DNA of 64,000 nt. It comes from Escherichia coli. GTDB taxonomy: Bacteria > Pseudomonadota > Gammaproteobacteria > Enterobacterales > Enterobacteriaceae. The position numbers were made by a program, and so were the translations under genes. Positions 2,266 through 53,000 of the stretch are shown one piece after another. How positions within the stretch are numbered: the stretch's first letter is position 1; every line of letters starts with the position of its first letter. The notes under the pieces were generated by a model, which saw nothing but the letters and a program-made list of their open reading frames with translations, was not told the origin of the DNA and ran no database searches. The stretch lies in NCBI RefSeq assembly GCF_003018255.1, contig NZ_CP027440.1. One strand, given 5' to 3'.

Positions 2266-2269
2266 AACG

Positions 2270-3118
2270 TCATGCTTCGTCTGGTTGCCAGCCTTCCGTA
2301 TACCAGATATGCAACAGCGCATAAGAACGCAAGGGCTTCCAGCGTTCGGCATAACGGCGGATTTGTGCCGGTGTCATTCCCGGAAATCGCTGTTTAATCA
2401 GATAATCATCCGGCAGGAAAACATCTTTCGCCTGCCAGCCGCGCAAGGCGAAATAATTCGCCGTCCAGCGCCCGATACCCGGAAAAGTTTGCAGCGTTTT
2501 CATCGCCTGCTCCACATCGCCCGGTATTGTCATTGGTAAGGTGCCCTCCAGCGCCGCATTTGCCAGATGAATCAGCGCCTCTGCCCGTTTCAACGGCATA
2601 CCTAACGCTTTTAATGCCTGCGGATCTGCTGCTGCCAGCCGCTGAGGCGTGGGGAAGCAGACATAATCCGGAAAATCATCCAGCCTTTCGCCATAAAGCT
2701 GTGCCACTCTGGCGGTCAATTTTGCCGCCATCGCCACGCTCACCAGCTGGCCTAAAATCGCCCGCACGCCCTGCTCAAAAGCATCAACACAACCGGGTAA
2801 ACGCAATCCGGGCCGTGCCGCGCCTAACTTGCCCAACGCACCGTTAACAATCTGCGGGTTACATTGCAGATCAAACAGGCGGCTCATTTTCGCCAGACAC
2901 TCTGCGGCAACGGGTTCTAAACCTGCACTTAAATTTATGTGCAGAGTATGGCTGGCTATATCCGGAATAGCAGTCACCACGCCGCGACATTCGCCCACCG
3001 CCAGACTACGGGCATAATAATCGTCAGCGACCGTTTCCACACCGTTCACCGCACGGGCGGCGAGAAATCCCAACATCCACGACCAGTCATACGGCGGCTG
3101 CCAGTTCAGGGTATACAT
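2270..3118 (-). CDS. alkA: 3-methyladenine DNA glycosylase II
   Basis: 282 aa ORF; translation recognised as AlkA (MYTLNWQPPYDWSWMLGFLAARAV...). Confidence 0.9.
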   Translation of the reverse strand: MYTLNWQPPYDWSWMLGFLAARAVNGVETVADDYYARSLAVGECRGVVTAIPDIASHTLHINLSAGLEPVAAECLAKMSRLFDLQCNPQIVNGALGKLGAARPGLRLPGCVDAFEQGVRAILGQLVSVAMAAKLTARVAQLYGERLDDFPDYVCFPTPQRLAAADPQALKALGMPLKRAEALIHLANAALEGTLPMTIPGDVEQAMKTLQTFPGIGRWTANYFALRGWQAKDVFLPDDYLIKQRFPGMTPAQIRRYAERWKPLRSYALLHIWYTEGWQPDEA

Positions 3119-7315: not shown

Positions 7316-7971
7316 ACTGACGTCCAGCCTTTTGGCGCTTCCAGCACAACTTCCGTTCCCGGCGTGGAGCGGGAAACCGAACGCAGCGAACTGGATAACC
7401 AGCTAAATAGTTCGCGGAATTGTAATCCTTGAAGAGGCAAAGGCTGACGAACGCTGATTTGGGCCAGCGTCTTCATATCCGCCCCCTGAACACCGATGGA
7501 AAAGAAGGCAAACTTCTTATCTTCTTCCCCCTGAAACACCTTGTTGGCAGCAGCCTGCCACTCATCGGTTGGTGCGCCATCGGTAATCAGGAAAATCCAC
7601 GGACGATAATAGGAAATACCATTGGCGCGATACTCACGTTTGCGCTCCTCAACCATATCCAGGGCTTTGGTAATGGCGGCCCCCATTGGTGTATCGCCCT
7701 GGGCAAACAGGATGGGCGGGAAAAAATTAGCGGCGCTGGTAAATGGTTGTTCCACATGCACCGGGCCGAACGTCACAATGCCGAGTTCCACTCTTTTTAA
7801 GGCCAGCGGATCGGCAAGCAGCTCATCGCGAAAGGTAACCAATCCGGCGTTAAGTTCATTAATAGGTCTACCGTTCATAGAACCAGAAACATCCAACAGC
7901 AAAATGCAGGGGCAACGTGGTTCCGGGTTACTGGCAAAATCGCTGGTGGCAAACGTGATTTGTTCGCTCAT
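7312..7971 (-). CDS. yegL: von Willebrand factor A domain protein YegL
   Basis: 219 aa ORF with MIDAS motif DVSGSM and downstream TDG. Confidence 0.8.
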
Positions 7972-8152
7972 AAGAAATCCTTTCTTAGAGAATTATTGAG
8001 GCCCGGTATCATACCGACTGCAACAATGAAATAAGAGCAAACGAAGAAACTTTCAGAATTAGGCCCGGCGGCGCAGAAAATTTTGCTATTCGCCTCGCAA
8101 GAACGGAGAGCCGTCGATTGACACTAAGGGCGGAGTGACATAATTTCAGGAG

Positions 8153-8300
8153 TGAGGGTTAGGGAGAGGTTTCCCCCTCCCCCTGGTGTTCTTAGTAAGC
8201 CTGGAAGCTAATCACTAAGAGTATCACCAGTATGATGACGTGCTTCATCATAACCCTTTCCTTATTAAAAGCCCTCTTCTCCGGGAGAGGGTTTCCCGTT
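8153..8300 (+). ncRNA. sibA: Sib antisense RNA antitoxin, copy 1 (boundaries approximate)
   Basis: Plus-strand -35 ttgaca 8118-8123, 17 bp spacer, -10 taattt 8141-8146; transcript fully covers ibs ORF; hairpin plus T tract near 8268-8303. Confidence 0.55.
8192..8251 (-). CDS. ibsA: Ibs type I toxin, 19 aa hydrophobic peptide (MMKHVIILVILLVISFQAY)
   Basis: Reverse complement of 8192..8251 reads ATGATGAAGCACGTCATCATACTGGTGATACTCTTAGTGATTAGCTTCCAGGCTTACTAA; SD-like ggaaaggg upstream. Confidence 0.8.
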   Translation of the reverse strand: MMKHVIILVILLVISFQAY

Positions 8301-8487
8301 TCAGCGTCCCGCTGAAATCGTCGGCTTACCTCCTTTCGCCCTGAATGCAGTCTATCGCTAACGCGTGAACAAAATAGTTTCCTCTGTGATTATTGCGTAA
8401 CGACTCGCAAAGAATATTTGCTGGCAGGATCGCAGACTACAAAGCCTGCGGATTGACAATCTTATCGTGAAGGCATAATTTCAGGAG

Positions 8488-8630
8488 TGAGGGTAGAGCG
8501 GGGTTTCCCCCGCCCTGGTAGTCTTAGTAAGCTGGCCAGCTAATAACTAAGAGCACCACGATGATGAGTAGCTTCATCATGACCCTTTCCTTATTTAAGG
8601 CCCCTTCCTCGGGAGGGGCTTTCCCGTTTC
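8488..8630 (+). ncRNA. sibB: Sib antisense RNA antitoxin, copy 2 (approximate)
   Basis: ttgaca 8453-8458, 17 bp spacer, taattt 8476-8481; hairpin ggccccttcctcgggaggggct followed by ttcccgtttc. Confidence 0.55.
8524..8580 (-). CDS. ibsB: Ibs type I toxin, 18 aa (MMKLLIIVVLLVISWPAY)
   Basis: Reverse complement of 8524..8580 gives ATGATGAAGCTACTCATCATCGTGGTGCTCTTAGTTATTAGCTGGCCAGCTTACTAA. Confidence 0.8.
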   Translation of the reverse strand: MMKLLIIVVLLVISWPAY

Positions 8631-8815
8631 AGCGTCCCGCTGAAATCGGCGGCCTACCTCCTTTCGCCATGCAAGCAGTCTATCGCTAACTTGCAGATAA
8701 AATAGTTTCACATGTGATTATTGCGTAACGTCTCGCAAAGAATATTTGCTGGCAGGATCGCAGACTACAAAGCCTGCGGATTGACAATCTAATTGTGAAG
8801 GCATACTTTCAGGAG

Positions 8816-8957
8816 TGAGGGTAGAGCGGGGTTTCCCCCGCCCTGGTAGTCTTAGTAAGCCGGGAAGCTTATGACTAAGAGCACCACGATGATGATCCAC
8901 TTCATCATGACCCTTTCCTTATTTAAGGCCCCTTCCTCGGGAGGGGCTTTCCCGTTT
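8816..8957 (+). ncRNA. Sib-family antisense RNA, copy 3 (approximate)
   Basis: ttgaca 8781-8786, 17 bp spacer, -10-like tacttt 8804-8809; terminator hairpin ending near 8957. Confidence 0.5.
8852..8908 (-). CDS. Ibs-family type I toxin, 18 aa (MMKWIIIVVLLVISFPAY)
   Basis: Reverse complement of 8852..8908 gives ATGATGAAGTGGATCATCATCGTGGTGCTCTTAGTCATAAGCTTCCCGGCTTACTAA. Confidence 0.75.
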   Translation of the reverse strand: MMKWIIIVVLLVISFPAY

Positions 8958-9143
8958 CAGCGTCCCGCTGAAATCATCGGCTTACCTCCTTTCGCCCTGA
9001 ATGCAGTCTATCGCTGACTTGCGGATAAAATAGTTTCACATGTGATTATTGCGTGACGTCTCGCAAAGAATATTTGCTGGCAGGATCGCAGACTGCAAAG
9101 CCTGCGGATTGACAATCGGACCGTGAAGGCATACTTTCAGGAG

Positions 9144-9287
9144 TGAGGGTAGAGCGGGGTTTCCCCCGCCCTGGTAGTCTTAGTAAGCTGGGTAGCTAAC
9201 GACTAAGAGCACCACGATGATGAGTATCTTCATCATGACCCTTTCCTTATTTAAGGCCCCTTCCTCGGGAGGGGCTTGCCCGTTTCA
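9144..9287 (+). ncRNA. Sib-family antisense RNA, copy 4 (approximate)
   Basis: ttgaca 9109-9114, 17 bp spacer, tacttt 9132-9137; terminator hairpin ending near 9286. Confidence 0.5.
9180..9236 (-). CDS. Ibs-family type I toxin, 18 aa (MMKILIIVVLLVVSYPAY)
   Basis: Reverse complement of 9180..9236 gives ATGATGAAGATACTCATCATCGTGGTGCTCTTAGTCGTTAGCTACCCAGCTTACTAA. Confidence 0.75.
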   Translation of the reverse strand: MMKILIIVVLLVVSYPAY

Positions 9288-9444
9288 GCGTCCCGCTGAA
9301 ATCGTCGGCCTACCTCCTTTTGCCCTGAATGCAGTCTATCGCTAACGCGTAGATAAAATAGTTTCCTGTGTTATTACTGGATGGGTGCTCGCAAATGTGC
9401 CCGCCATTCAGACGATTCCCGATAGTGTTTCATAATTCCTCCAT

Positions 9445-9462
9445 TTTTCTCCCTGATTGGCT
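9445..9462 (+). promoter_or_regulatory. BaeR response-regulator binding box in mdtA promoter
   Basis: tttttctccctgattggc resembles the BaeR box consensus as recalled (TTTTTCTCCATDATTGGC); about 55 bp upstream of mdtA start. Confidence 0.5.
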
Positions 9463-9514
9463 GGCTACACTAGTATCATTCCGCGAATCGTTTCAGGAAG
9501 AGAAACTCTTAACG

Positions 9515-10762
9515 ATGAAAAGCAGTTATAAATCCCGTTGGGTAATGGTAATCGTGGTGGTTATCGCCGCCATCGCCGCATTCTGGTTCTGGCAAGGCCG
9601 CAATGACTCCCGGAGTGCAGCGCCAGGGGCGACGAAACAAGCGCAGCAATCGCCAGCGGGTGGTCGCCGTGGTATGCGTTCCGGCCCATTAGCCCCGGTT
9701 CAGGCGGCGACCGCCGTAGAACAGGCAGTTCCGCGTTACCTCACCGGGCTTGGCACCATTACCGCCGCTAATACTGTTACGGTGCGCAGCCGCGTGGACG
9801 GTCAACTGATGGCGTTGCATTTCCAGGAAGGCCAGCAGGTCAAAGCAGGCGATTTACTGGCAGAAATTGACCCCAGCCAGTTCAAAGTTGCATTAGCACA
9901 AGCCCAGGGCCAACTGGCAAAAGATAAAGCCACGCTTGCCAACGCCCGCCGTGACCTGGCGCGTTATCAACAACTGGTAAAAACCAATCTCGTATCTCGT
10001 CAGGAGCTGGATGCCCAACAGGCGCTGGTCAGTGAAACCGAAGGCACCATTAAGGCTGATGAAGCAAGCGTCGCCAGCGCGCAGCTGCAACTCGACTGGA
10101 GCCGCATCACCGCACCAGTCGATGGTCGCGTTGGTCTCAAGCAGGTTGATGTTGGTAACCAAATCTCCAGTGGTGATACCACCGGGATTGTGGTGATCAC
10201 CCAGACGCATCCTATCGATTTGCTCTTTACCCTGCCGGAAAGCGATATCGCTACCGTAGTGCAGGCGCAAAAAGCCGGAAAACCGCTGGTTGTTGAAGCC
10301 TGGGATCGCACCAATTCAAAGAAATTAAGTGAAGGCACGCTGTTAAGTCTCGATAACCAAATCGATGCCACTACCGGTACGATTAAAGTGAAAGCACGCT
10401 TCAATAATCAGGATGATGCGCTGTTTCCCAATCAGTTTGTTAACGCGCGCATGTTAGTCGACACAGAGCAAAACGCTGTGGTGATCCCAACAGCCGCCCT
10501 GCAAATGGGCAATGAAGGCCATTTTGTCTGGGTGCTGAATAGCGAAAACAAGGTCAGCAAACATCTGGTGACGCCGGGCATTCAGGACAGTCAGAAAGTG
10601 GTGATCCGCGCAGGTATTTCTGCGGGCGACCGCGTAGTGACAGACGGCATTGATCGCCTGACCGAAGGGGCGAAAGTGGAAGTAGTGGAAGCCCAGAGCG
10701 CCACCACTCCGGAAGAGAAAGCCACCAGCCGCGAATACGCGAAAAAAGGAGCACGCTCCTGA
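9515..10762 (+). CDS. mdtA: Multidrug efflux RND membrane fusion protein MdtA
   Basis: ORF 9368..10762; start placed at ATG 9515 ([16 protein letters not shown]..., 415 aa) rather than the longest ORF; periplasmic adaptor coiled-coil/lipoyl features. Confidence 0.9.
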
Positions 10763-13700
10763 TGCAGGTGTTACCCCCGAGCAGCACAGGCGGCCCGTCG
10801 CGCCTGTTTATTATGCGTCCTGTCGCCACCACGCTGCTGATGGTGGCGATCTTACTCGCCGGGATTATCGGTTATCGAGCCCTGCCCGTTTCGGCGCTGC
10901 CGGAAGTGGACTATCCGACCATTCAGGTAGTCACGCTCTACCCAGGTGCGAGCCCGGATGTCATGACCTCTGCCGTTACCGCGCCGCTTGAACGCCAGTT
11001 TGGGCAGATGTCTGGCCTGAAACAGATGTCGTCGCAAAGTTCCGGCGGTGCGTCAGTTATCACTTTGCAGTTCCAGCTAACATTACCGCTCGATGTCGCC
11101 GAGCAGGAAGTGCAGGCCGCGATTAACGCTGCGACCAACTTGTTGCCGAGCGATCTGCCTAACCCGCCGGTTTACAGCAAAGTGAACCCGGCAGATCCGC
11201 CGATCATGACGCTCGCTGTCACCTCAACCGCCATGCCGATGACGCAAGTGGAAGATATGGTGGAAACCCGCGTCGCGCAGAAAATCTCGCAGATTTCCGG
11301 CGTCGGCCTGGTGACACTTTCCGGCGGTCAGCGTCCGGCTGTTCGCGTCAAACTTAACGCTCAGGCGATTGCCGCCCTCGGCCTGACCAGCGAAACCGTG
11401 CGCACCGCCATTACCGGCGCTAACGTCAACTCGGCAAAAGGTAGCCTCGACGGCCCTTCTCGTGCGGTTACGCTTTCCGCTAACGACCAGATGCAATCCG
11501 CCGAAGAGTATCGCCAGCTAATCATCGCCTACCAGAACGGCGCGCCGATTCGTCTGGGCGATGTCGCAACCGTAGAGCAAGGTGCAGAAAACAGCTGGCT
11601 TGGCGCATGGGCTAACAAAGAACAGGCCATTGTGATGAATGTTCAGCGCCAGCCCGGTGCTAACATTATCTCCACCGCCGACAGCATTCGGCAGATGCTG
11701 CCACAGCTCACCGAGAGTCTGCCGAAATCGGTGAAGGTGACGGTACTTTCTGACCGTACCACCAATATTCGCGCATCCGTGGATGATACTCAGTTTGAAT
11801 TGATGATGGCTATCGCGCTGGTAGTCATGATTATCTACCTGTTTTTGCGTAATATTCCGGCGACCATCATTCCCGGCGTCGCAGTGCCGCTGTCGTTAAT
11901 CGGCACCTTCGCGGTCATGGTGTTTCTCGATTTTTCAATCAATAACCTGACGCTGATGGCGTTAACTATCGCCACCGGATTTGTGGTCGATGACGCCATC
12001 GTGGTGATCGAAAACATTTCCCGCTATATCGAAAAAGGCGAAAAACCGCTGGCGGCGGCGCTCAAAGGCGCAGGTGAAATCGGTTTTACCATTATCTCGC
12101 TGACCTTCTCGCTGATTGCAGTGCTGATCCCGCTACTGTTTATGGGCGATATCGTCGGGCGACTGTTCCGCGAATTTGCTATTACTCTGGCAGTCGCGAT
12201 TTTGATCTCAGCCGTGGTGTCGCTGACCCTGACACCGATGATGTGTGCGCGGATGCTCAGCCAGGAGTCGCTGCGTAAACAGAACCGCTTCTCCCGTGCC
12301 TCGGAAAAAATGTTCGACAGGATAATCGCCGCCTATGGTCAGGGACTTGCGAAAGTGCTGAATCATCCGTGGCTGACCTTAAGCGTGGCGCTCAGCACGC
12401 TGCTGCTTAGCGTGCTGTTGTGGGTGTTCATTCCGAAAGGTTTCTTCCCGGTACAGGACAACGGCATTATTCAGGGCACTTTGCAGGCACCGCAATCCAG
12501 CTCCTTTACCAATATGGCCCAGCGGCAACGCCAGGTCGCGGATGTGATTTTGCAAGATCCGGCGGTGCAAAGTCTGACCTCATTTGTTGGCGTTGATGGC
12601 ACTAACCCGTCGCTGAACAGTGCGCGTTTGCAGATCAACCTCAAACCGTTGGATGAACGTGATGATCGGGTGCAAAAAGTCATCGCCCGCCTGCAAACGG
12701 CGGTGGATAAAGTGCCGGGCGTCGATCTCTTCCTGCAACCAACGCAGGACCTGACCATCGATACTCAGGTCAGCCGCACCCAGTACCAGTTTACCTTGCA
12801 GGCCACGTCACTGGATGCGCTCAGTACCTGGGTGCCACAGTTGATGGAAAAACTCCAGCAACTGCCACAGCTTTCTGATGTCTCCAGCGACTGGCAGGAC
12901 AAAGGGCTGGTGGCGTATGTCAATGTTGATCGCGACAGCGCCAGCCGTCTGGGGATCAGCATGGCGGACGTCGATAACGCCCTTTACAACGCGTTTGGTC
13001 AGCGACTGATTTCCACTATTTATACTCAGGCCAACCAGTATCGCGTGGTGCTGGAGCACAACACCGAAAATACTCCTGGGCTTGCGGCGCTGGATACTAT
13101 TCGCCTGACCAGCAGCGACGGCGGCGTGGTACCGCTAAGCTCAATTGCCAAAATTGAGCAGCGTTTTGCGCCGCTTTCCATCAACCATCTGGATCAGTTC
13201 CCGGTAACGACCATCTCCTTTAACGTGCCGGATAACTATTCGCTGGGCGATGCGGTGCAGGCGATTATGGACACCGAAAAGACGCTGAATCTGCCGGTGG
13301 ATATCACCACGCAGTTCCAGGGCAGCACCCTCGCCTTCCAGTCGGCGTTGGGCAGCACTGTCTGGCTGATTGTCGCGGCGGTGGTGGCGATGTATATCGT
13401 GCTCGGCATTCTGTACGAGAGCTTTATTCACCCGATCACCATTCTCTCGACGCTACCCACCGCAGGGGTCGGCGCACTGCTGGCGTTACTGATTGCCGGT
13501 AGCGAGCTGGATGTGATTGCGATTATCGGCATTATTTTGCTGATCGGTATCGTGAAGAAGAACGCCATCATGATGATCGACTTCGCGCTGGCTGCTGAGC
13601 GCGAGCAAGGCATGTCGCCGCGCGATGCAATCTACCAGGCTTGTCTGTTGCGTTTTCGTCCGATCCTGATGACCACCCTGGCGGCTCTGCTTGGCGCGCT

Positions 13701-13884
13701 GCCGCTGATGTTGAGTACCGGGGTCGGCGCGGAACTGCGTCGTCCGTTAGGTATCGGCATGGTCGGCGGTCTGATTGTCAGCCAGGTGCTGACGCTGTTC
13801 ACCACGCCGGTGATTTATCTGCTATTCGACCGCCTGGCATTGTGGACCAAAAGCCGCTTTGCTCGTCATGAAGAGGAGGCGTAA
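10762..13884 (+). CDS. mdtB: RND multidrug efflux transporter MdtB
   Basis: 1040 aa ORF, 12-TM RND permease architecture; ATG overlaps mdtA stop (tgATGcag). Confidence 0.9.
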
Positions 13885-16800
13885 GTGAAGTTTTTTGCCC
13901 TCTTCATTTACCGCCCGGTGGCGACGATTTTACTGTCGGTCGCCATTACCCTGTGCGGCATACTGGGTTTCCGTATGCTGCCAGTCGCCCCGCTGCCGCA
14001 GGTCGATTTTCCGGTGATTATGGTCAGCGCCTCGCTGCCCGGTGCGTCACCAGAAACAATGGCGTCTTCCGTTGCCACGCCGCTGGAACGTTCGCTTGGA
14101 CGCATTGCCGGGGTCAGTGAAATGACCTCCAGCAGTTCGCTCGGCAGCACGCGCATTATTTTGCAGTTTGATTTTGACCGCGATATCAACGGCGCAGCGC
14201 GCGATGTGCAAGCGGCGATCAACGCCGCGCAAAGTTTGCTGCCCAGCGGGATGCCAAGCCGTCCGACCTATCGCAAAGCGAACCCGTCGGATGCGCCAAT
14301 TATGATCCTCACGCTGACATCCGATACTTATTCGCAGGGTGAACTGTACGATTTCGCCTCGACGCAGCTGGCTCCGACGATTTCGCAAATCGACGGTGTC
14401 GGTGATGTCGATGTTGGCGGCAGCTCACTGCCCGCCGTACGCATCGGGCTGAATCCGCAGGCGCTGTTTAATCAGGGCGTGTCGCTGGACGATGTGCGCA
14501 GCGCCATCAGCAATGCCAACGTGCGTAAGCCGCAGGGGGCGCTGGAAGATGATACCCATCGCTGGCAGATCCAGACTAACGATGAACTGAAAACCGCCGC
14601 CGAATATCAGCCGTTGATTATTCATTACAACAACGGCGGCGCGCTTCGTCTGGGCGATGTGGCGACGGTGACCGACTCGGTGCAGGATGTGCGCAACGCC
14701 GGGATGACCAACGCCAAACCGGCTATTTTGCTGATGATCCGCAAGCTGCCGGAAGCCAATATTATCCAGACGGTTGACAGCATCCGGGCAAAATTACCGG
14801 AGTTGCAGGAGACCATTCCGGCGGCGATTGATCTGCAAATTGCCCAGGATCGCTCCCCCACCATTCGCGCCTCGCTGGAGGAAGTCGAGCAAACGCTGAT
14901 TATCTCGGTGGCGCTGGTGATTCTGGTGGTCTTTTTATTCCTGCGCTCGGGTCGCGCCACTATTATTCCCGCCGTTGCGGTGCCGGTTTCGCTGATTGGT
15001 ACGTTTGCGGCGATGTACCTGTGCGGATTCAGTCTCAATAACCTTTCGTTAATGGCGCTCACCATCGCTACTGGTTTCGTGGTGGATGACGCCATCGTGG
15101 TGCTGGAAAACATTGCCCGTCACCTGGAAGCGGGGATGAAACCGCTACAGGCCGCGCTGCAAGGCACTCGCGAAGTCGGTTTTACGGTGCTGTCGATGAG
15201 TCTGTCACTGGTGGCGGTGTTTCTGCCGCTGCTGTTGATGGGCGGATTGCCGGGTCGCCTGTTACGCGAGTTTGCCGTGACGCTTTCTGTCGCCATTGGT
15301 ATTTCGCTGCTGGTTTCTCTGACGCTAACGCCAATGATGTGCGGCTGGATGCTAAAAGCCAGTAAGCCGCGCGAGCAAAAGCGACTACGTGGTTTTGGTC
15401 GCATGTTGGTAGCCCTGCAACAAGGCTATGGTAAGTCGCTGAAATGGGTGCTTAATCATACCCGTCTGGTGGGCGTGGTGCTGCTTGGCACCATTGCTTT
15501 GAATATCTGGCTGTATATCTCGATCCCGAAAACCTTCTTCCCGGAGCAGGACACCGGCGTGTTGATGGGCGGGATACAGGCGGATCAGAGTATTTCGTTT
15601 CAGGCGATGCGCGGTAAGTTGCAGGATTTTATGAAAATTATCCGTGACGATCCGGCAGTGGATAATGTCACCGGATTTACCGGCGGTTCGCGGGTGAACA
15701 GCGGGATGATGTTTATCACGCTGAAGCCACGCGGCGAACGCAGCGAAACGGCGCAGCAAATTATCGACCGTCTGCGCGTGAAGCTGGCGAAAGAACCGGG
15801 GGCGAATCTGTTCCTGATGGCGGTACAGGATATTCGCGTTGGCGGACGTCAGTCGAACGCCAGCTATCAGTACACGTTGCTGTCCGACGACCTGGCGGCA
15901 CTGCGCGAATGGGAGCCGAAAATTCGCAAAAAACTGGCGACATTGCCGGAACTGGCGGACGTGAACTCCGACCAGCAGGATAACGGCGCGGAGATGAATC
16001 TGGTTTACGACCGCGACACCATGGCACGGCTGGGAATCGACGTGCAGGCCGCCAACAGCCTGTTAAATAACGCCTTCGGTCAGCGACAAATCTCGACCAT
16101 TTACCAGCCGATGAACCAGTATAAAGTGGTGATGGAAGTGGATCCGCGCTATACCCAGGACATCAGTGCGCTGGAAAAAATGTTCGTTATCAATAACGAA
16201 GGAAAAGCGATCCCGCTGTCGTATTTCGCTAAATGGCAACCGGCGAATGCTCCGCTGTCGGTGAATCATCAGGGATTATCGGCAGCCTCGACCATCTCGT
16301 TCAACCTGCCGACCGGGAAATCGCTCTCGGACGCCAGTGCGGCGATCGATCGCGCAATGACCCAGCTTGGTGTGCCTTCGACGGTGCGCGGTAGTTTTGC
16401 CGGCACGGCGCAGGTGTTCCAGGAGACGATGAACTCGCAGGTGATCCTGATTATCGCCGCCATCGCCACGGTGTATATCGTGCTGGGTATCCTTTACGAG
16501 AGTTACGTACATCCGCTGACGATTCTCTCCACCCTGCCCTCGGCGGGCGTTGGAGCGCTGCTGGCGCTGGAGCTGTTCAATGCCCCGTTCAGCCTAATCG
16601 CCCTGATAGGGATCATGCTATTAATCGGCATCGTGAAGAAAAACGCCATTATGATGGTCGATTTTGCGCTTGAAGCCCAACGGCACGGTAACCTCACGCC
16701 GCAGGAAGCTATTTTCCAGGCCTGTCTGCTGCGTTTTCGCCCGATTATGATGACTACCCTGGCGGCGCTGTTTGGCGCGCTGCCGCTGGTATTGTCGGGC

Positions 16801-16962
16801 GGTGACGGTTCGGAGCTGCGGCAACCCCTGGGGATCACCATTGTCGGCGGTCTGGTCATGAGCCAGCTTCTGACGCTGTATACCACGCCGGTGGTGTATC
16901 TCTTTTTCGACCGTCTGCGACTGCGTTTTTCGCGTAAACCTAAACAAGCGGTAACCGAGTAA
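13885..16962 (+). CDS. mdtC: RND multidrug efflux transporter MdtC
   Basis: 1025 aa ORF, paralogous to MdtB; GTG start immediately after mdtB stop. Confidence 0.9.
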
Positions 16963-18378
16963 ATGACAGATCTTCCCGACAGCACCCGCTGGCAATTGTG
17001 GATTGTGGCTTTCGGCTTCTTTATGCAGTCGCTGGACACCACCATCGTTAACACCGCGCTTCCCTCAATGGCGCAAAGCCTCGGGGAAAGTCCGTTGCAT
17101 ATGCACATGGTCATTGTCTCTTATGTACTGACCGTGGCGGTGATGCTGCCCGCCAGCGGCTGGCTGGCGGACAAAGTCGGCGTGCGCAATATTTTCTTTA
17201 CCGCCATCGTGCTGTTTACTCTCGGTTCACTGTTTTGCGCGCTTTCCGGCACGCTGAACGAACTGTTGCTGGCACGCGCGTTACAGGGCGTTGGCGGCGC
17301 GATGATGGTGCCGGTCGGCAGGTTGACGGTGATGAAAATCGTACCGCGCGAGCAATATATGGCGGCGATGACCTTTGTCACGCTGCCCGGTCAGATCGGG
17401 CCGCTGCTTGGCCCGGCGCTCGGCGGTCTGCTGGTGGAGTACGCATCGTGGCACTGGATCTTTTTGATCAACATTCCGGTGGGGATTATTGGCGCGATCA
17501 CCACACTGATGTTAATGCCGAACTACACCATGCAGACGCGGCGCTTTGATCTCTCCGGCTTTTTATTGCTGGCGGTTGGCATGGCGGTATTAACCCTGGC
17601 GCTGGACGGCAGTAAAGGTACAGGTTTATCGCCGCTGGCGATTGCTGGCCTGGTCGCAGTTGGCGTGGTGGCACTGGTGCTTTATCTGCTGCACGCCAGA
17701 AATAACAACTGCGCCCTGTTCAGTCTGAAACTGTTCCGTACTCGTACCTTTTCGCTGGGTCTGGCGGGGAGTTTTGCCGGACGTATCGGTAGCGGCATGT
17801 TGCCCTTTATGACGCCGGTTTTCCTACAAATTGGCCTTGGCTTCTCACCGTTTCATGCCGGACTGATGATGATCCCGATGGTGCTCGGCAGCATGGGGAT
17901 GAAGCGAATTGTGGTACAGGTAGTGAATCGCTTTGGTTATCGTCGGGTACTGGTGGCGACCACGCTGGGTCTGTCGCTGGTCACCCTGTTGTTTATGACT
18001 ACTGCTCTGCTGGGCTGGTACTACGTTTTGCCGTTCGTCCTGTTTTTACAAGGGATGGTCAACTCGACCCGTTTCTCCTCCATGAACACCCTGACGCTGA
18101 AAGATCTCCCGGACAATCTGGCGAGCAGCGGCAACAGTCTGCTGTCGATGATTATGCAATTGTCGATGAGTATCGGCGTCACTATCGCCGGGCTGTTGCT
18201 GGGACTTTTTGGTTCACAGCATGTCAGCATCGACAGCGGCACCACACAAACCGTCTTTATGTACACCTGGCTTAGCATGGCGTTGATCATCGCCCTTCCG
18301 GTGTTTGTCTTTGCCAGAGTGCCGAGCGATACGCATCAAAATGTAGCTATTTCACGGCGAAAAAGGAGCGCGCAATGA
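16963..18378 (+). CDS. mdtD: MFS transporter MdtD
   Basis: 471 aa ORF with about 14 hydrophobic segments; starts immediately after mdtC stop. Confidence 0.85.
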
Positions 18379-19778
18379 AGTTCTGGCGACCCGGTATTAC
18401 CGGCAAACTGTTTCTGGCGATTTTCGCCACCTGCATTGTCTTGCTGATCAGTATGCACTGGGCGGTGCGTATCAGTTTTGAGCGTGGCTTTATCGATTAC
18501 ATCAAGCATGGTAATGAACAACGGCTGCAAATGCTCGGCGATGCGCTTGGTGAGCAGTACGCCCAGCACGGGAACTGGCGCTTCCTGCGTAATAACGATC
18601 GCTTTGTATTTCAGATCCTACGTTCACTGGAGCATGATAACAACGAAGATAAGCCCGGCCCCGGTATGCCACCACACGGCTGGCGCACGCAATTTTGGGT
18701 GGTTGATCAAAATAATAAAGTGCTGGTTGGCCCGCGAGCACCGGTTCCACCCGACGGCACACGGCGGCCCATTATGGTCAATGGTGCGGAAGTTGGCGCG
18801 GTGATCGCCTCCCCTGTTGAACGACTGACCCGTAATACTGATATCAATTTTGACAGACAACAGCGGCAAACCAGTTGGCTGATTGTGGCTTTATCTACCT
18901 TATTAGCGGCGCTGGCGACATTCCCACTGGCGCGCGGTTTGCTGGCTCCGGTAAAACGACTGGTGGATGGCACGCACAAACTGGCAGCGGGTGATTTCAC
19001 TACTCGCGTAGCCCCCACCAGCGAAGATGAGTTGGGCAGACTGGCAGAGGATTTCAATCAACTCGCCAGCACACTGGAGAAAAACCAGCAGATGCGCCGC
19101 GATTTTATGGCCGATATTTCTCATGAACTGCGCACGCCTTTAGCAGTACTGCGCGGCGAACTGGAAGCCATTCAGGATGGTGTGCGTAAATTCACGCCGG
19201 AGACGCTGGCTTCTTTACAGGCGGAGGTCGGTACACTGACCAAACTGGTTGACGATCTTCATCAGTTGTCGATGTCTGATGAAGGCGCTCTCGCCTATCA
19301 AAAAGCACCGGTAGATTTGATCCCACTGCTGGAAGTGGCGGGCGGCGCATTTCGCGAACGATTTGCCAGCCGTGGCCTGAAACTGCAATTTTCCCTGCCA
19401 GACAGTATTACCGTATTTGGCGATCGCGATCGTTTAATGCAGTTGTTCAATAACTTACTGGAAAACAGCCTGCGCTACACTGACAGCGGCGGCAGCCTGA
19501 AAATCTCTGCCGAGCAGCACGACAAAACGGTGCGCCTGACCTTTGCCGACAGCGCGCCGGGCGTCAGTGACGATCAGCTACAAAAATTGTTTGAACGTTT
19601 TTATCGCACCGAAGGTTCCCGCAACCGTGCCAGCGGCGGTTCCGGGCTGGGACTCGCGATTTGCCTGAACATTGTTGAAGCACATAATGGCCGCATTATT
19701 GCTGCCCATTCGCCTTTTGGCGGGGTAAGCATTACAGTAGAGTTACCGCTGGAACGGGATTTACAGAGAGAAGTATGA
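18375..19778 (+). CDS. baeS: Envelope-stress sensor histidine kinase BaeS
   Basis: 467 aa; HAMP region, H-box ([17 protein letters not shown]), GxGLGL ATP lid; start overlaps mdtD stop. Confidence 0.9.
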
Positions 19779-20497
19779 CCGAGTTACCAATCGACGAAAA
19801 CACACCGCGTATTTTGATCGTGGAAGATGAACCGAAGCTGGGACAGTTGCTCATTGATTATCTGCGTGCCGCGAGCTATGCGCCGACGCTTATCAGCCAC
19901 GGCGATCAGGTACTGCCGTATGTGCGCCAGACACCACCGGATCTGATCCTGTTGGATCTGATGCTCCCTGGCACCGATGGCCTGACGCTGTGCCGGGAAA
20001 TTCGTCGTTTTTCTGACATTCCGATCGTGATGGTGACGGCAAAAATCGAAGAGATCGACCGCCTGCTGGGGCTGGAGATTGGCGCCGATGACTACATCTG
20101 CAAGCCGTACAGCCCACGGGAAGTGGTAGCGCGTGTCAAAACCATTTTGCGCCGTTGTAAACCGCAACGCGAACTTCAGCAACAGGATGCCGAAAGCCCG
20201 TTGATGATCGACGAAGGTCGTTTTCAGGCTTCATGGCGCGGTAAAATGCTTGACCTGACGCCTGCGGAATTTCGTCTGCTGAAAACGCTCTCTCATGAAC
20301 CAGGAAAAGTGTTCTCCCGCGAGCAATTGCTCAATCATCTTTATGACGACTACCGCGTAGTAACCGACCGCACCATCGATAGCCACATTAAAAACCTGCG
20401 CCGCAAGCTGGAATCTCTCGACGCCGAACAGTCATTTATCCGTGCCGTTTACGGTGTCGGTTACCGCTGGGAAGCCGACGCCTGCCGCATCGTTTAG
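19775..20497 (+). CDS. baeR: OmpR-family response regulator BaeR
   Basis: 240 aa; receiver domain (ILIVEDEP...[14 protein letters not shown]) plus winged-helix C-terminus; overlaps baeS stop. Confidence 0.9.
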
Positions 20498-20687
20498 TTT
20501 TAGCGACATGACTTTGTTAGCCGGAGATGGCGTTCAGATCAGATCCGGCAACATTATCCCACGTATGGTCAGCAAACTGACATTATCTCTCCGCCCTGGC
20601 AGGCACCAGAAAATCGCTCATACTTTAATCGGTAAACAGCACCTTTAGATGCTGTTTTCGATACGCAATTTCAATCAAGGAGTCATT

Positions 20688-21020
20688 ATGGCTGGTTGGT
20701 TTGAACTCAGTAAGAGCAGTGATAATCAATTCCGGTTTGTGCTAAAAGCGGGCAATGGTGAGACTATCCTCACCAGCGAGCTGTATACCTCAAAAGCCTC
20801 TGCGGAAAAGGGCATCGCGTCGGTGCGTAGCAACAGCCCGCAAGAAGAACGCTATGAGAAAAAAACGGCAAGCAATGGCAAATTCTATTTCAATCTGAAA
20901 GCCGCCAATCATCAAATTATCGGCTCCAGCCAGATGTATGCCACCGCGCAATCTCGTGAAACCGGAATTGCCTCCGTTAAAGCAAATGGCACAAGCCAGA
21001 CGGTGAAAGACAATACGTAA
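20688..21020 (+). CDS. yegP: Small protein YegP (tandem DUF1508-like repeats)
   Basis: ORF 20649..21020; start placed at ATG 20688 after aaggag RBS (MAGWFELSKSSDNQFRFVLKAG..., 110 aa). Confidence 0.8.
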   Translation: MAGWFELSKSSDNQFRFVLKAGNGETILTSELYTSKASAEKGIASVRSNSPQEERYEKKTASNGKFYFNLKAANHQIIGSSQMYATAQSRETGIASVKANGTSQTVKDNT

Positions 21021-21167
21021 TTACGATGCCGGGCGCGTGTTGTTGGCGTCCGGCGCTTTACCAGCTCCCCCCTACAGCGCTACAATGCCCGCCCTTAAAG
21101 TGGGGGCACTCCCCTGGCCGCTTCATCAGGTGAAGCGGATCTGACCTGTCATCAGAACGAGAGAATT

Positions 21168-22529
21168 ATGTTTAAACCGGAACTCCTTTCCCCGGCGGGA
21201 ACGCTGAAAAATATGCGTTACGCTTTCGCTTATGGCGCAGATGCTGTTTATGCGGGCCAGCCGCGTTACTCCCTGCGTGTGCGCAACAACGAATTCAACC
21301 ACGAAAATCTTCAGCTCGGCATCAATGAAGCCCACGCGCTGGGGAAAAAGTTTTATGTCGTGGTCAACATTGCACCGCACAACGCCAAGCTGAAAACCTT
21401 TATCCGTGACCTGAAACCGGTGGTGGAAATGGGGCCGGATGCGCTAATAATGTCCGATCCAGGGCTGATTATGCTGGTGCGTGAGCACTTCCCTGAAATG
21501 CCGATCCATCTCTCGGTACAGGCTAACGCCGTGAACTGGGCGACGGTGAAATTCTGGCAGCAAATGGGACTGACCCGCGTGATCCTCTCTCGCGAGCTGT
21601 CGCTGGAAGAGATTGAAGAGATCCGCAATCAGGTGCCAGATATGGAGGTAGAGATCTTCGTTCACGGCGCGCTGTGCATGGCCTACTCTGGTCGCTGCCT
21701 GCTCTCTGGCTACATCAACAAGCGCGATCCGAATCAGGGCACCTGCACTAACGCCTGCCGCTGGGAGTACAACGTCCAGGAAGGCAAAGAAGATGACGTT
21801 GGCAACATCGTACACAAGTACGAGCCAATTCCGGTGCAAAATGTTGAGCCGACGCTGGGTATCGGCGCACCAACTGACAAAGTGTTTATGATCGAAGAAG
21901 CCCAGCGTCCGGGCGAGTATATGACCGCGTTTGAAGATGAGCACGGCACTTACATCATGAACTCGAAAGATCTGCGCGCCATCGCCCATGTAGAACGCCT
22001 GACCAAAATGGGCGTGCATTCGCTGAAAATCGAAGGTCGTACCAAATCTTTCTACTATTGCGCACGCACCGCGCAGGTTTACCGTAAAGCTATCGATGAC
22101 GCCGCTGCGGGAAAACCATTCGATACCAGCCTGCTGGAAACTCTGGAAGGTCTGGCGCATCGTGGCTATACCGAAGGTTTCCTGCGTCGTCATACTCACG
22201 ACGATTATCAGAACTACGAATACGGTTATTCAGTTTCTGACCGCCAGCAGTTTGTTGGTGAGTTTACCGGTGAGCGCAAGGGCGACCTCGCGGCGGTAGC
22301 GGTGAAAAATAAATTCTCCGTTGGCGACAGTCTTGAGCTGATGACGCCGCAAGGGAACATTAACTTTACCCTTGAGCATATGGAAAACGCCAAAGGTGAA
22401 GCTATGCCGGTCGCACCAGGCGATGGTTATACTGTGTGGATCCCGGTGCCGCAGGATCTTGAGCTAAATTACGCGCTGCTGATGCGTAATTTCTCCGGGG
22501 AAACCACGCGTAACCCCCACGGTAAGTGA
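21168..22529 (+). CDS. yegQ: U32-family peptidase-like protein YegQ
   Basis: 453 aa ORF recognised as YegQ. Confidence 0.8.
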   Translation: MFKPELLSPAGTLKNMRYAFAYGADAVYAGQPRYSLRVRNNEFNHENLQLGINEAHALGKKFYVVVNIAPHNAKLKTFIRDLKPVVEMGPDALIMSDPGLIMLVREHFPEMPIHLSVQANAVNWATVKFWQQMGLTRVILSRELSLEEIEEIRNQVPDMEVEIFVHGALCMAYSGRCLLSGYINKRDPNQGTCTNACRWEYNVQEGKEDDVGNIVHKYEPIPVQNVEPTLGIGAPTDKVFMIEEAQRPGEYMTAFEDEHGTYIMNSKDLRAIAHVERLTKMGVHSLKIEGRTKSFYYCARTAQVYRKAIDDAAAGKPFDTSLLETLEGLAHRGYTEGFLRRHTHDDYQNYEYGYSVSDRQQFVGEFTGERKGDLAAVAVKNKFSVGDSLELMTPQGNINFTLEHMENAKGEAMPVAPGDGYTVWIPVPQDLELNYALLMRNFSGETTRNPHGK

Positions 22530-49925: not shown

Positions 49926-50024
49926 AAATTCCTAAATTTGTTTTCTTGCGATTTTGTCTCTCTCTAACCCGCATAAATACTGGTAGCATCTGCATTCAAC
50001 TGGATAAAATTACAGGGATGCAGA

Positions 50025-53000
50025 ATGAGACACTTTATCTATCAGGACGAAAAATCACATAAATTCTGGGCGGTGGAGCAGCAGGGAAACGAACTGCACA
50101 TCAACTGGGGTAAAGTCGGCACCAACGGACAAAGCCAGGTAAAAAGTTTTGCGGATGCAGCAGCGGCGGAAAAAGCGGGACTGAAGCTGATTGCAGAGAA
50201 GGTGAAGAAGGGGTATGTGGAGCAAGCGAAGGATAATTCTTTGCAACCTTCCCAAACGGTAACGGACTCTCTCAAGGTAGCTGACTTATCCACCATTATT
50301 CAGGAACAACCCTCTTTCGTAGCAGAAACCCGTGCGGCTGACAAAAATACAGATGCTGTTTTACCGTGGCTGGCGAAAGATATTGCTGTCGTTTTTCCGC
50401 CCGAAGTTGTACACACCACGTTAAGTCATCGCCGCTTTCCCGGAGTTCCTGTTCAGCAAGCAGACAAATTGACCCAATTACGTCGCTTAGCCTGTAGTGT
50501 GTCGCAACGGGATAATAAAACAGCCACATTTGACTTCAGCGCCTGTTCTTTAGAATGGCAAAACACCGTCGCCCAGGCGATCAGTCAGATCGACGGCCTG
50601 AAAACAACACAGCTACCATCACCCGTAATGGCTGTACTCACTGCACTTGAAATGAAATGCACAAGATATAAAGAGCGTGAGGATGTTATGGATCAGATTA
50701 TTCAGGAAGGCGGTCTGGAATATGCTACTGATGTAATAATACATCTTCAACAAATATCTATTGAATGGGATTATGTCAACAATAATATTGTTTTCCTGTC
50801 GTCTGGCATTTCACCTGATTACTTGCAGCAATATTCCAGCTTTGAATTACGCCTACGTAAACATTTATCACTGGCGGAAGAGTCTCTCTGGCAAAAATGT
50901 GCACAAAAACTTATTGCCGCAATTCCACATATTCCAGAATGGCGGCAACCATTAATTGCTTTGTTATTACCCGAAAAACCAGAAATTGCACATGAAATTT
51001 CCCAGCGTCTACTGGGGCAAAAGAAATTACCCTCGCTTGAGTGGCTAAAAATAGTGGCGACTGATGAGCACATTCTTGCCTCATTAGAAAAATATCACGA
51101 GCCATATGCCATTTTTGATGATTACTATTGTGGTGCGATATGGTCAGCCACCGTATTACAGGAGCAAGGTGTTACAGCCCTGCCCCGATTTGCTCCCTAT
51201 GCCGCAAGTGACTACTGCGCCGATGTGTTGCGTCATATCAATCATCCGTTCGCATTAACACTGCTTATACGTGTAGCCGGGCATACTAAACGCTGTCACG
51301 ATCGAATGACGAAAGCCTGCGCTGCGTTCCCACACGCAGCACTGGCAGCACTGGCGGAACTTCTAGTGCAAAAAGAAGAGAATAGTTGGCGCATTATGCT
51401 AATGACGATGCTTATCTCGCATCCGACACTAGCAGAACAGGTCATTCCCTGGCTTTCGACACCCGCAGTTGCAGTGCTGAAATCATGTCAGCAACAACTG
51501 ACACAGCCCTCAAACCATGCCAGCGCCGATCTACTGCCGGCCATAGTAGTCTCCCCACCATGGCTTTCGAAAAAGAAAAAATCGCCGATTCCGGTGCTGG
51601 ATTTAGCACCGCTCAACCTCGAATCCATATGCACAATAACCGACACAGAAGCTAAAGAGTTTCAAACTCATTGGGACTGGGAACCGCATAAGCCAAGTGA
51701 AGGTGCTAAAAATTTCCTTTACTCGCTGGGGTATCGCCGCTGGGATTTTGACACATATAAATATATCGGCGCTTCTGACTCGGCAATTGACGCATGGGAA
51801 CGTGAGGACTTCGCTACACTCATCCAAATGTTTAAAGCCCACCATGCACCGTATCAGGGGGAGTGGCATCTCAACTCACTTCCCTTTTTACCTATGCAAA
51901 AAGCGATTAAGCTATGGGAATTTCTCAGCAAAGAGCCGCATACCGCGATAAAACCAGTCATGCTTTATTTGCGACTGGCAGGTATGAGTGGTTTTCTACA
52001 CTCGTTTTCACGCTACCCTCAAGAAGGTTTTGCGGTTGCTAATTATTTTGCCGCAACGGAACTGGCTCCTGCCGTCGCCCGCGCCTTCAACAAACTCAAA
52101 ACATTACGACAAGACGCCAGTAGCTGGCTGCTGAAATACCCGGAACACGCCATTACCGGCCTGCTGCCTGCAGCGCTCGGCAAAGCCAGTGAAGCACAGG
52201 ACAACGCCCGTGCTGCCTTGCGTATGCTTACCGAAAACGGTCATCAGCCATTGCTGCAAGAAATCGCCCGGCGTTATAACCAGCCGGAAGTAACCGATGC
52301 GGTGAACGCTCTACTTGCGCTCGATGCCTTAGATAATCACCCGACAAAAATCCCCACTCTTCCGACCTTTTATCAGCCATCGCTCTGGACGCGCCCGTTA
52401 TTAAAAGCAAACGCCCAATCACTGCCTGATAGCGCACTCCTCCACCTCGGTGAAATGCTCCGCTTCCCTCAGGAAGAGGCACTGTATCCGGGATTATTGC
52501 AGGTGAAAGATGCCTGTACCACCGACTCACTGGCTGAATTTGCCTGGGATCTGTTTACCGCCTGGCAGACCGCTGGCGCGCCGTCGAAAGAGAGTTGGGC
52601 GTTCACTGCGTTAGGCGTTCTCGGTAACGATGACACCGCCCGCAAACTGACGCCTTTGATTCGCGCCTGGCCTGGTGAATCCCAGCATAAACGCGCCACC
52701 GTCGGGTTGGATATTCTCGCTGCTATCGGTAGTGATATCGCCCTGATGCAGCTTAACGGCATCGCCCAGAAACTGAAATTCAAAGCATTACAGGAGCGGG
52801 CAAAAGAAAAAATTGCCGACATTGCCGAGAGCCGCGAACTCACGGTGGCGGAGCTTGAAGATCGGTTAGCACCGGATCTCGGTCTGGATGATAATGGTTC
52901 GTTGTTGCTGGATTTCGGCCCACGCCAGTTCACCGTCAGCTTTGATGAAACCTTAAAACCGTTTGTGCGTGACGCTTCCGGCAGTCGTCTGAAAGACCTG

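Follow-up and report, generated by a model that had tools for sequence, protein, structure and literature searches.

The window analysed here, a stretch of 64,000 nucleotides from contig NZ_CP027440.1, is Escherichia coli chromosome, and its 1.5-kb segment at 9300-10800 matches, at 100% identity, E. coli chromosomes in which mdtA and mdtB are annotated. Six genes follow one another on one strand in the order mdtA-mdtB-mdtC-mdtD-baeS-baeR. Both this order and the junctions described below agree with how RefSeq annotates an identical strain and K-12, and all six proteins (MdtA/B/C/D, BaeS and BaeR) exceed their curated NCBIfam cut-offs, as follows:

9515..10762, plus strand: mdtA, 415 aa, RND periplasmic adaptor (NF008589, 721 bits against a cut-off of 391)
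10762..13884, plus strand: mdtB, 1040 aa (NF007798, 2242 bits against a cut-off of 1584)
13885..16962, plus strand: mdtC, 1025 aa, GTG start (NF007905, 2209 bits against a cut-off of 1774)
16963..18378, plus strand: mdtD/iceT, 471 aa, MFS transporter (NF007799, 961 bits against a cut-off of 426)
18375..19778, plus strand: baeS, 467 aa, sensor kinase with HAMP, HisKA and HATPase_c domains (NF007837, 930 bits against a cut-off of 603)
19775..20497, plus strand: baeR, 240 aa, OmpR/PhoB-family response regulator (NF007982, 450 bits against a cut-off of 380)

In Pfam, BaeR consists of a Response_reg domain (PF00072) and a winged-helix Trans_reg_C domain (PF00486). The region is very probably the promoter and the start of the E. 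coli mdtABCD-baeSR operon, activated by BaeR via an array of hexamers.

Chained stop and start codons had been described for the whole operon in the first-pass annotation, and all five junctions are as claimed (-1, 0, 0, -4 and -4 nt). The mdtA stop codon (TGA, 10760-10762) and the mdtB start codon (ATG, 10762-10764) share one nucleotide in TGATG, while the mdtB TAA (13882-13884) directly abuts the mdtC GTG at 13885, and the mdtC TAA (16960-16962) abuts the mdtD ATG at 16963. The last two junctions are ATGA overlaps of 4 nt, formed by the mdtD TGA (18376-18378) with the baeS ATG at 18375 and by the baeS TGA (19776-19778) with the baeR ATG at 19775. Across 80 Enterobacteriaceae loci the gene order is kept and the junctions stay tight, with mdtC/mdtD being looser. 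Of the 80 loci, 79 have -1 nt at mdtA/mdtB, and 65 of 66 have -4 nt at baeS/baeR; at mdtB/mdtC, 66 loci have 0 nt and 4 have -4 nt, and at mdtD/baeS, 45 have -4 nt and 17 have -1 nt. The most variable is mdtC/mdtD, with -4 to +4 nt in 62 loci and 20 to 99 nt in 6. As a baseline, about 30 other neighbouring pairs of genes on the same strand are annotated across the window, and 7 of them overlap as well. Single overlaps are thus common; five in a row are uncommon without being extraordinary.

Conservation of the promoter was assessed across the 80 Enterobacteriaceae loci, with a 23-genus alignment scored by mean majority frequency. The region upstream of mdtA contains the following elements:

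9428..9448, plus strand: conserved block TTTCATAATTCCTCCATTTTT, with hexamers H1 TTTCAT (9428-9433) and H2 CTCCAT (9439-9444); majority frequency 0.94
9444..9461, plus strand: BaeR box TTTTTCTCCCTGATTGGC, which holds hexamer H3 CTCCCT (9449-9454); 17/18 match to TTTTTCTCCATDATTGGC
9465..9480, plus strand: core-promoter block CTACACTAGTATCATT; majority frequency 0.96
9490..9503, plus strand: 5'-UTR block GTTTCAGGAAGAGA, purine-rich, SD-like and unusually far from the ATG; majority frequency 0.94

The BaeR-box-like sequence that had been noticed upstream of mdtA is indeed present, 71 nt upstream of the mdtA ATG, although its true start is 9444, so that the earlier position of 9445 was off by 1 nt. 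Its sole mismatch, C for A at position 10, is to the BaeR motif 5'-TTTTTCTCCATDATTGGC-3' of Nishino et al. (2005), as quoted in PMC3799227 and PMC3915751. A second BaeR consensus, TCTNCANAA, is attributed to Yamamoto et al. (2008) by a paper that quotes it, and the box core TCTCCCTGA agrees with the core of that consensus at 5 of 7 specified positions. When the 64-kb window was shuffled 100 times with its dinucleotides preserved, no shuffle matched TTTTTCTCCATDATTGGC at ≤1 mismatch, and a chance origin of the box was therefore rejected. Nishino and colleagues are said to have built the 18-mer consensus in 2005 from the mdtA, acrD and spy promoters. Because the mdtA promoter helped to define the 18-mer, the match is partly circular and does not constitute independent evidence.

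The 18-mer as a whole is not conserved across orthologous promoters. At the homologous position, two or fewer mismatches were found in 7 of the 80 loci (all Escherichia), three to five in 15 and at least six in 58; the first 5 nt are kept, while the other 13 nt are at background (0.56), and this 3' portion is conserved only within Escherichia and Citrobacter. The TTTCATAATTCCTCCATTTTT block shares only those first 5 nt with the box, and the 21 nt at 9428-9448 that adjoin the box on its upstream side are nearly invariant in the 80 loci. H2 reads CTCCAT in 75/80 loci and CTTCAT in the other 5/80, with an invariant offset to the -10 block, while H3 reads CTCCCT in 20/80. The three hexamers start at 9428, 9439 and 9449 and form direct repeats with spacings of 11 and 10 bp. 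This motif was defined post hoc, and as single 10-mers it shows no enrichment in the window (5 matches against 3 expected). Judging from these patterns, the 18-mer is probably not the complete operator, and it may not be the principal one either; the TTTCATAATTCCTCCATTTTT block is a candidate for the core BaeR dimer site.

Downstream of the hexamers, the CTACACTAGTATCATT block offers two overlapping -10 candidates, TACACT (9466-9471) and TAGTAT (9471-9476), and between it and the H1-H2 block lies a 16-nt spacer, which is variable in sequence and fixed in length in 80/80 loci. We infer from the sequence where the hexamers would lie relative to +1 and that they would overlap the -35 position; the Cappable-seq supplement lists no mapped transcription start near 21539xx, and a literature search yielded nothing useful on the mdtA start site. 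The SD-like element of mdtA reaches a best anti-SD pairing of only -4.3 kcal/mol, at a spacing of 15 nt to the start codon. As for other regulatory elements, no convincing CpxR box (GTAAA-N5-GTAAA) was found within 3 mismatches at 9251-9520, and the Rfam search of 7500-21500 found only four SIB_RNA copies; the mdtA leader gave no match. The mdtA promoter was also considered as a part of the sib/ibs repeat, but this was rejected, as the repeat homology stops at 9395, some 30 nt short of the conserved block.

According to published K-12 ChIP-exo data, the two highest signal-to-noise peaks of BaeR genome-wide are located at the mdtA promoter, and none lies inside the operon. Peak_5 (K-12 2153931-2153967) contains the orthologous box (2153945-2153962) and maps to 9430-9466 of the window, with the TTTCATAATTCCTCCATTTTT block inside it, while peak_6 maps to 9471-9497. 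The first-pass annotation had held that a BaeR footprint elsewhere in the promoter would speak against its box, and peak_5 covers the orthologous box. Under ethanol, deletion of baeR in K-12 lowers expression (log2) by 4.0 for mdtA, 3.8 for mdtB, 3.6 for mdtC, 3.35 for mdtD and 4.6 for baeS, so that expression drops 10- to 25-fold together in each of the five operon genes for which data exist. Reviews and primary papers likewise describe one operon with a well-characterised BaeR site. Within the operon in this window, promoter-like matches do not exceed chance (9 against 7.2), no strong plus-strand terminator was found, and no notable terminator-like site lies between the mdtA promoter and baeSR. 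The earlier proposal of a single autoregulated operon is thus backed by the published K-12 ChIP-exo peaks and by the joint fall of mdtA to baeS in the baeR deletion. A BaeR-activated, positively autoregulated single operon had already been established by these K-12 experiments; mdtABCD-baeSR is a known drug-efflux and envelope-stress operon, and its operon structure, BaeR dependence, autoregulation and 18-mer motif are all on record in the literature and standard databases, which makes the observation correct and ordinary.

In the mechanism we propose, phosphorylated BaeR, a winged-helix regulator of the OmpR/PhoB type, would bind to CTCCAT-like hexamers that are arrayed directly upstream of a weak core promoter. 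The array would comprise H1 (9428), H2 (9439) and H3 (9449), such that the published 18-mer, which amounts to one hexamer with its flanks, would correspond here to H3, the promoter-proximal member of the three. Binding of BaeR would lead to transcription of one six-gene mRNA and, since the operon ends with baeS and baeR, to positive autoregulation, that is, a self-amplifying system. The stop/start overlaps would keep the genes packed and might let ribosomes that end one gene begin the next, with reinitiation most plausible where a gene's own ribosome-binding site is weak, at mdtD and at baeR. Published K-12 experiments, from which all the functional data derive, and the sequence itself show that BaeR occupies the site, that the genes are co-expressed in dependence on BaeR, which genes these are, and how their junctions are built and conserved. 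Which pair of hexamers is used by BaeR, where transcription starts and whether any translational coupling takes place are points that we infer.

It falls a little short of an even chance, in our estimate, that the ancestral BaeR dimer site is H1-H2 (TTTCAT-N5-CTCCAT, 9428-9444), with the 18-mer not being primary and with H3 and the rest of the box representing an extra half-site of Escherichia and Citrobacter. The H1-H2 block has a majority frequency of 0.94 against the background value of the remaining 13 nt of the box, and H2 occurs as CTCCAT or CTTCAT in 80/80 loci against H3 in a quarter of them. Peak_5 reaches 14 nt upstream of the box and only 5 nt downstream, although ChIP-exo peak calls are coarse, and at spy in K-12, CTTCAT-N5-CTGCAA lies under the upstream BaeR peak, while the perfect 18-mer lies outside both peaks. 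The 11-bp spacing of H1-H2 is also that of the repeats of DzrR. Induction of mdtA by an activating mutation in baeS is also seen in Klebsiella pneumoniae, and the sampled Klebsiella species are without H3 (K. pneumoniae itself being outside the sample). However, the hexamer of the 18-mer at K-12 acrD has an upstream partner at 11 bp (CTCCTT-N5-CTCCAC), and, with H2 and H3 spaced 10 bp apart at mdtA, this pair might just as well form the dimer site of E. coli. The post hoc definition of the motif from the same sequences and the lack of enrichment of its single 10-mers also weigh against H1-H2. If H1-H2 were the ancestral operator and the 3' two-thirds of the 18-mer a recent addition, searches with the 18-mer would mis-define the BaeR regulon outside E. 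coli; for enterobacterial searches of this kind, only its first 5 nt and the 16 nt preceding them are conserved at mdtA.

As regards translation, the junction geometry is compatible with coupling and would permit it, but does no more. Such overlap geometry supports termination-reinitiation in other operons. Coupling, which is often assumed from overlaps, would bear on the MdtB2C stoichiometry and on the BaeS:BaeR ratio, and the MdtB2C stoichiometry does not fit simple 1:1 coupled synthesis. That the overlaps represent compact packing only, with each cistron initiating at its own ribosome-binding site and no functional coupling, seems to us possible, if somewhat doubtful. Strong conserved SDs precede mdtB (AAGGAG, 9 nt upstream, pairing -7.9 kcal/mol), mdtC (GAGGAGG, -12.0 kcal/mol) and baeS (AAGGAG), as packing alone would have it, but mdtD is almost without an SD (-3.0 kcal/mol) and that of baeR is weak (GAGAGA, -4.1 kcal/mol). 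Other neighbours in the window often overlap by 4 or 1 nt (the 7 of about 30 pairs mentioned above), and the mdtC/mdtD junction tolerates gaps of 20-99 nt in 6 genera; on the other side stands the near-complete retention of ATGA at baeS/baeR and of TGATG at mdtA/mdtB. Among the papers searched, none addresses translational coupling of mdtABCD-baeSR. A hairpin (AGGAG...CTCCT) at the mdtA/mdtB junction that could mask the mdtB SD was examined as a coupling device and set aside. It is not unusually stable (-9.4 kcal/mol, z = -1.18), and covariation was uninformative for it, because both of its arms are invariant.

It is quite unlikely that the 5' half of the H1-H2 block is kept as a BaeR-independent sigma-70 promoter (TTCAGA-18-CATAAT, 9407-9436) for basal BaeSR rather than as a BaeR contact: a consensus scan gives 9/12 matches, the TTCAGAC region is moderately conserved (0.73) and basal baeS without stimulus is nearly BaeR-independent in K-12 (log2 -0.41), but one such match per 400 nt is near chance (0.3 expected), the 18-nt spacer is suboptimal, the invariance of CTCCATTTTT downstream of the putative -10 is left unexplained, and the same TTCATAAT..CT.CA element lies under a BaeR ChIP-exo peak at spy.

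Compared with known systems, the K-12 mdtABCD-baeSR operon (b2074-b2079) has the same six genes, order and junction geometry as the operon described here, and the proteins show 96-99% identity with minor amino-acid differences. The K-12 promoter is 92% identical over the aligned upstream region, with no indels from the box to the ATG, and the K-12 box differs only at degenerate position 12 (T in K-12, G here). Further upstream, K-12 has two tandem Sib/Ibs repeats, and the window has four. The stop/start geometry of all five junctions, which is conserved across genera, is also that of translationally coupled bacterial operons with ATGA or TGATG, while three of the five downstream genes in this operon differ from them in having strong independent SDs.

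Hexamer repeats 10-11 bp apart are also found at K-12 acrD and spy. BaeR shares the winged-helix type of the PhoB/OmpR family, although the hexamer of the PhoB pho box (CTGTCAT) differs in sequence from those at mdtA, and operators of the OmpR/PhoB type have two or four half-sites, as compared with three candidate hexamers at mdtA. As in PhoB/OmpR-type operators and the CTCCAT-type repeats of DzrR and AdeR, the mdtA hexamers are 10-11 bp apart; they would fall at about the -35 position and keep a fixed distance to the -10 block. The footprint of DzrR, which is a related regulator, falls on two CTCCAT repeats with a spacing of 11 bp.

This part of the window is E. coli chromosome. Several complete E. 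coli genomes match 9300-10800 at 100% identity, and the segment is present in 5415 of 5426 genomes. In RefSeq, an identical strain and K-12 are both annotated with the gene order yegL, Sib/Ibs repeats, mdtA, mdtB, mdtC, mdtD, baeS, baeR and yegP. Each of the six translated operon products scores above the curated NCBIfam cut-off for its family (MdtA, MdtB, MdtC, MdtD, BaeS and BaeR). BaeS carries HAMP, HisKA and HATPase_c domains, while BaeR belongs to the OmpR/PhoB family, because it combines a receiver with a winged-helix Trans_reg_C domain. Elsewhere in the window, alkA (about 2269-3118) and a DUF4132 gene adjoining yehI (about 50023-53812) are frameshifted pseudogenes in the RefSeq annotation of strain 2014C-3338, which was matched to the window over 9300-10800 and from which these coordinates were mapped.

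Genes of the operon, with the junction to the next gene and the gap at that junction across Enterobacteriaceae loci
mdtA, 9515-10762; TGATG, -1 nt; -1 nt in 79/80 loci
mdtB, 10762-13884; TAA/GTG, 0 nt; 0 nt in 66, -4 nt in 4
mdtC, 13885-16962, GTG start; TAA/ATG, 0 nt; -4 to +4 nt in 62, 20-99 nt in 6
mdtD, 16963-18378; ATGA, -4 nt; -4 nt in 45, -1 in 17, +2 or +3 in 4, -32 in 1 (likely a start-codon mis-assignment)
baeS, 18375-19778; ATGA, -4 nt; -4 nt in 65/66
baeR, 19775-20497

According to reviews and primary papers, mdtABCD-baeSR is one operon under BaeSR control, and its BaeR site is well characterised; the site, the single operon and its autoregulation are already known. In K-12, deletion of baeR under ethanol lowered mdtA, mdtB, mdtC, mdtD and baeS by log2 4.0, 3.8, 3.6, 3.35 and 4.6, respectively (Choudhary et al. 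2020, PMC7657598), and this joint fall of five genes fits one transcript with positive autoregulation; the first-pass annotation had proposed a single autoregulated operon. BaeR ChIP-exo in the same study gave its two strongest peaks genome-wide here, peak_5 (K-12 2153931-2153967, signal-to-noise 10.96; window about 9430-9466) and peak_6 (2153972-2153998, 14.99; about 9471-9497), and none within the operon (PMC7657598). The BaeR box of K-12 (2153945-2153962) lies entirely within peak_5, so these data do not bear out the refuting case of a BaeR footprint away from the box.

The BaeR-box-like sequence claimed upstream of mdtA is present as TTTTTCTCCCTGATTGGC, though it starts at 9444 rather than 9445; it spans 9444-9461, ending 71 nt short of the mdtA ATG by the published distance measure used here, and departs from the published motif TTTTTCTCCATDATTGGC (as given in PMC3799227 and PMC3915751) at a single position. 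Across 100 shuffled windows, the motif was never matched with one mismatch or fewer. In the box, degenerate position 12 is T in K-12 and G in the window. The motif was reportedly derived bioinformatically by Nishino et al. (2005) from BaeR-responsive promoters, mdtA among them, so the match is partly circular.

In a promoter alignment of 23 genera, scored by majority frequency, three blocks are nearly invariant, namely TTTCATAATTCCTCCATTTTT at 9428-9448 (0.94), CTACACTAGTATCATT at 9465-9480 (0.96), which holds two overlapping -10 candidates, and the leader block GTTTCAGGAAGAGA at 9490-9503 (0.94). The 13 nt of the box past 9448 reach 0.56, the same level as upstream sequence under no constraint. 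The whole 18-mer is found at the homologous position with at most two mismatches only in the seven Escherichia sequences and has at least six in 58 of 80, whereas the hexamer at 9439-9444 is CTCCAT in 75/80 and CTTCAT in 5/80, and its distance from the -10 block is constant. Three similar hexamers can therefore be read in the E. coli sequence, TTTCAT (H1, 9428), CTCCAT (H2, 9439) and CTCCCT (H3, 9449), spaced 11 and 10 bp apart, and the published box reads as H3 with its flanks. Such an array would be expected for binding of an OmpR/PhoB-type dimer, and the candidate BaeR site may comprise H1-H2, H2-H3 or all three. The hexamer motif, defined after the fact, is not enriched in the window as isolated 10-mers (five matches, three expected). 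The one point of specialist interest is the position of the conserved operator core, just upstream of the textbook 18-mer and scarcely overlapping it.

On the best-supported account, BaeS would phosphorylate BaeR under envelope stress, and BaeR~P would bind the hexamer array at the would-be -35 position, a fixed 16 nt from the conserved -10 block, and recruit RNA polymerase; the resulting six-gene mRNA would yield more BaeS and BaeR. Peak_6 may reflect polymerase or an open complex. No mdtA transcription start was found in the literature or Cappable-seq supplement searched, and all placement relative to +1 is therefore inferred. A sigma-70-like TTCAGA-18-CATAAT at 9407-9436, whose -10 hexamer overlaps H1, could be a basal, BaeR-independent promoter; a single such match in 400 nt is near chance. 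The leader block GTTTCAGGAnGAGA (9490-9503) has a Shine-Dalgarno (SD)-like AGGA unusually far (16 nt) from the mdtA ATG and may serve either as a ribosome-binding site with long spacing or as a target of regulation; it has no Rfam match.

The five overlapping or abutting stop/start junctions are exactly as first described. Seven of about 30 other same-strand neighbouring pairs in the window overlap, so single overlaps are ordinary and a run of five merely uncommon. Among 80 Enterobacteriaceae loci (at most 10 kb each side, from one MdtA scan of species-representative genomes), gene order is kept in every contig that extends far enough. The looseness of the mdtC/mdtD junction accords with a dispensable mdtD, which is absent altogether from Erwinia. 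In these loci the mdtC start (13885) is GTG in Escherichia, Enterobacter and others and ATG in Citrobacter and Raoultella, and the baeS start (18375) is ATG, GTG or TTG by lineage; the weaker mdtC start could be related to the reported MdtB2C stoichiometry.

This conserved geometry permits translational coupling. Strong conserved SDs precede mdtB (AAGGAG, -7.9 kcal/mol), mdtC (GAGGAGG, -12.0) and baeS (AAGGAG, -7.9), and only mdtD (-3.0) and baeR (-4.1) look reliant on upstream ribosomes. An inverted repeat, AGGAG-CACG-CTCCT (10747-10760), allows the mdtB SD to pair with the final codons of mdtA, immediately ahead of TGATG. Of 66 distinct orthologous sequences, 53 can form four or more of its five pairs, its stability is not unusual (z = -1.18), and covariation is uninformative, because both arms are invariant. 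The literature searched held no paper linking coupling with mdtB or mdtC. Coupling is therefore put no higher than a reasonable prediction. A promoter-like TTGCCT-16-CATAAT (19661-19688, + strand) lies in the baeS 3' end, some 90 nt ahead of where baeR starts; promoter-like matches across the operon do not exceed chance in total.

Four Sib/Ibs type I toxin-antitoxin repeats stand in tandem between yegL and mdtA with a 328-bp period (8118-9251; Sib RNAs at 8118-8266, 8453-8595, 8781-8923 and 9109-9251), whereas K-12 has only sibA/ibsA and sibB/ibsB there. An additional inter-repeat spacer copy (9253-9395) ends about 30 nt short of the conserved mdtA promoter block, on its upstream side.

Similar hexamer pairs are found at other K-12 BaeR targets. 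K-12 acrD has the hexamer pair CTCCTT-N5-CTCCAC, the second hexamer lying within its 18-mer, and K-12 spy has CTTCAT-N5-CTGCAA under the upstream BaeR ChIP-exo peak. The perfect spy 18-mer (K-12 1825764-1825781; 765-782 of spy promoter sequence L083) falls between two called peaks, outside both, and the upstream peak covers TCATAATCTCTGCAAAATCAT (1825823-1825843; 824-844), similar to the conserved mdtA block. Likewise, the footprint of the related regulator DzrR covers two CTCCAT repeats with 11-bp spacing.
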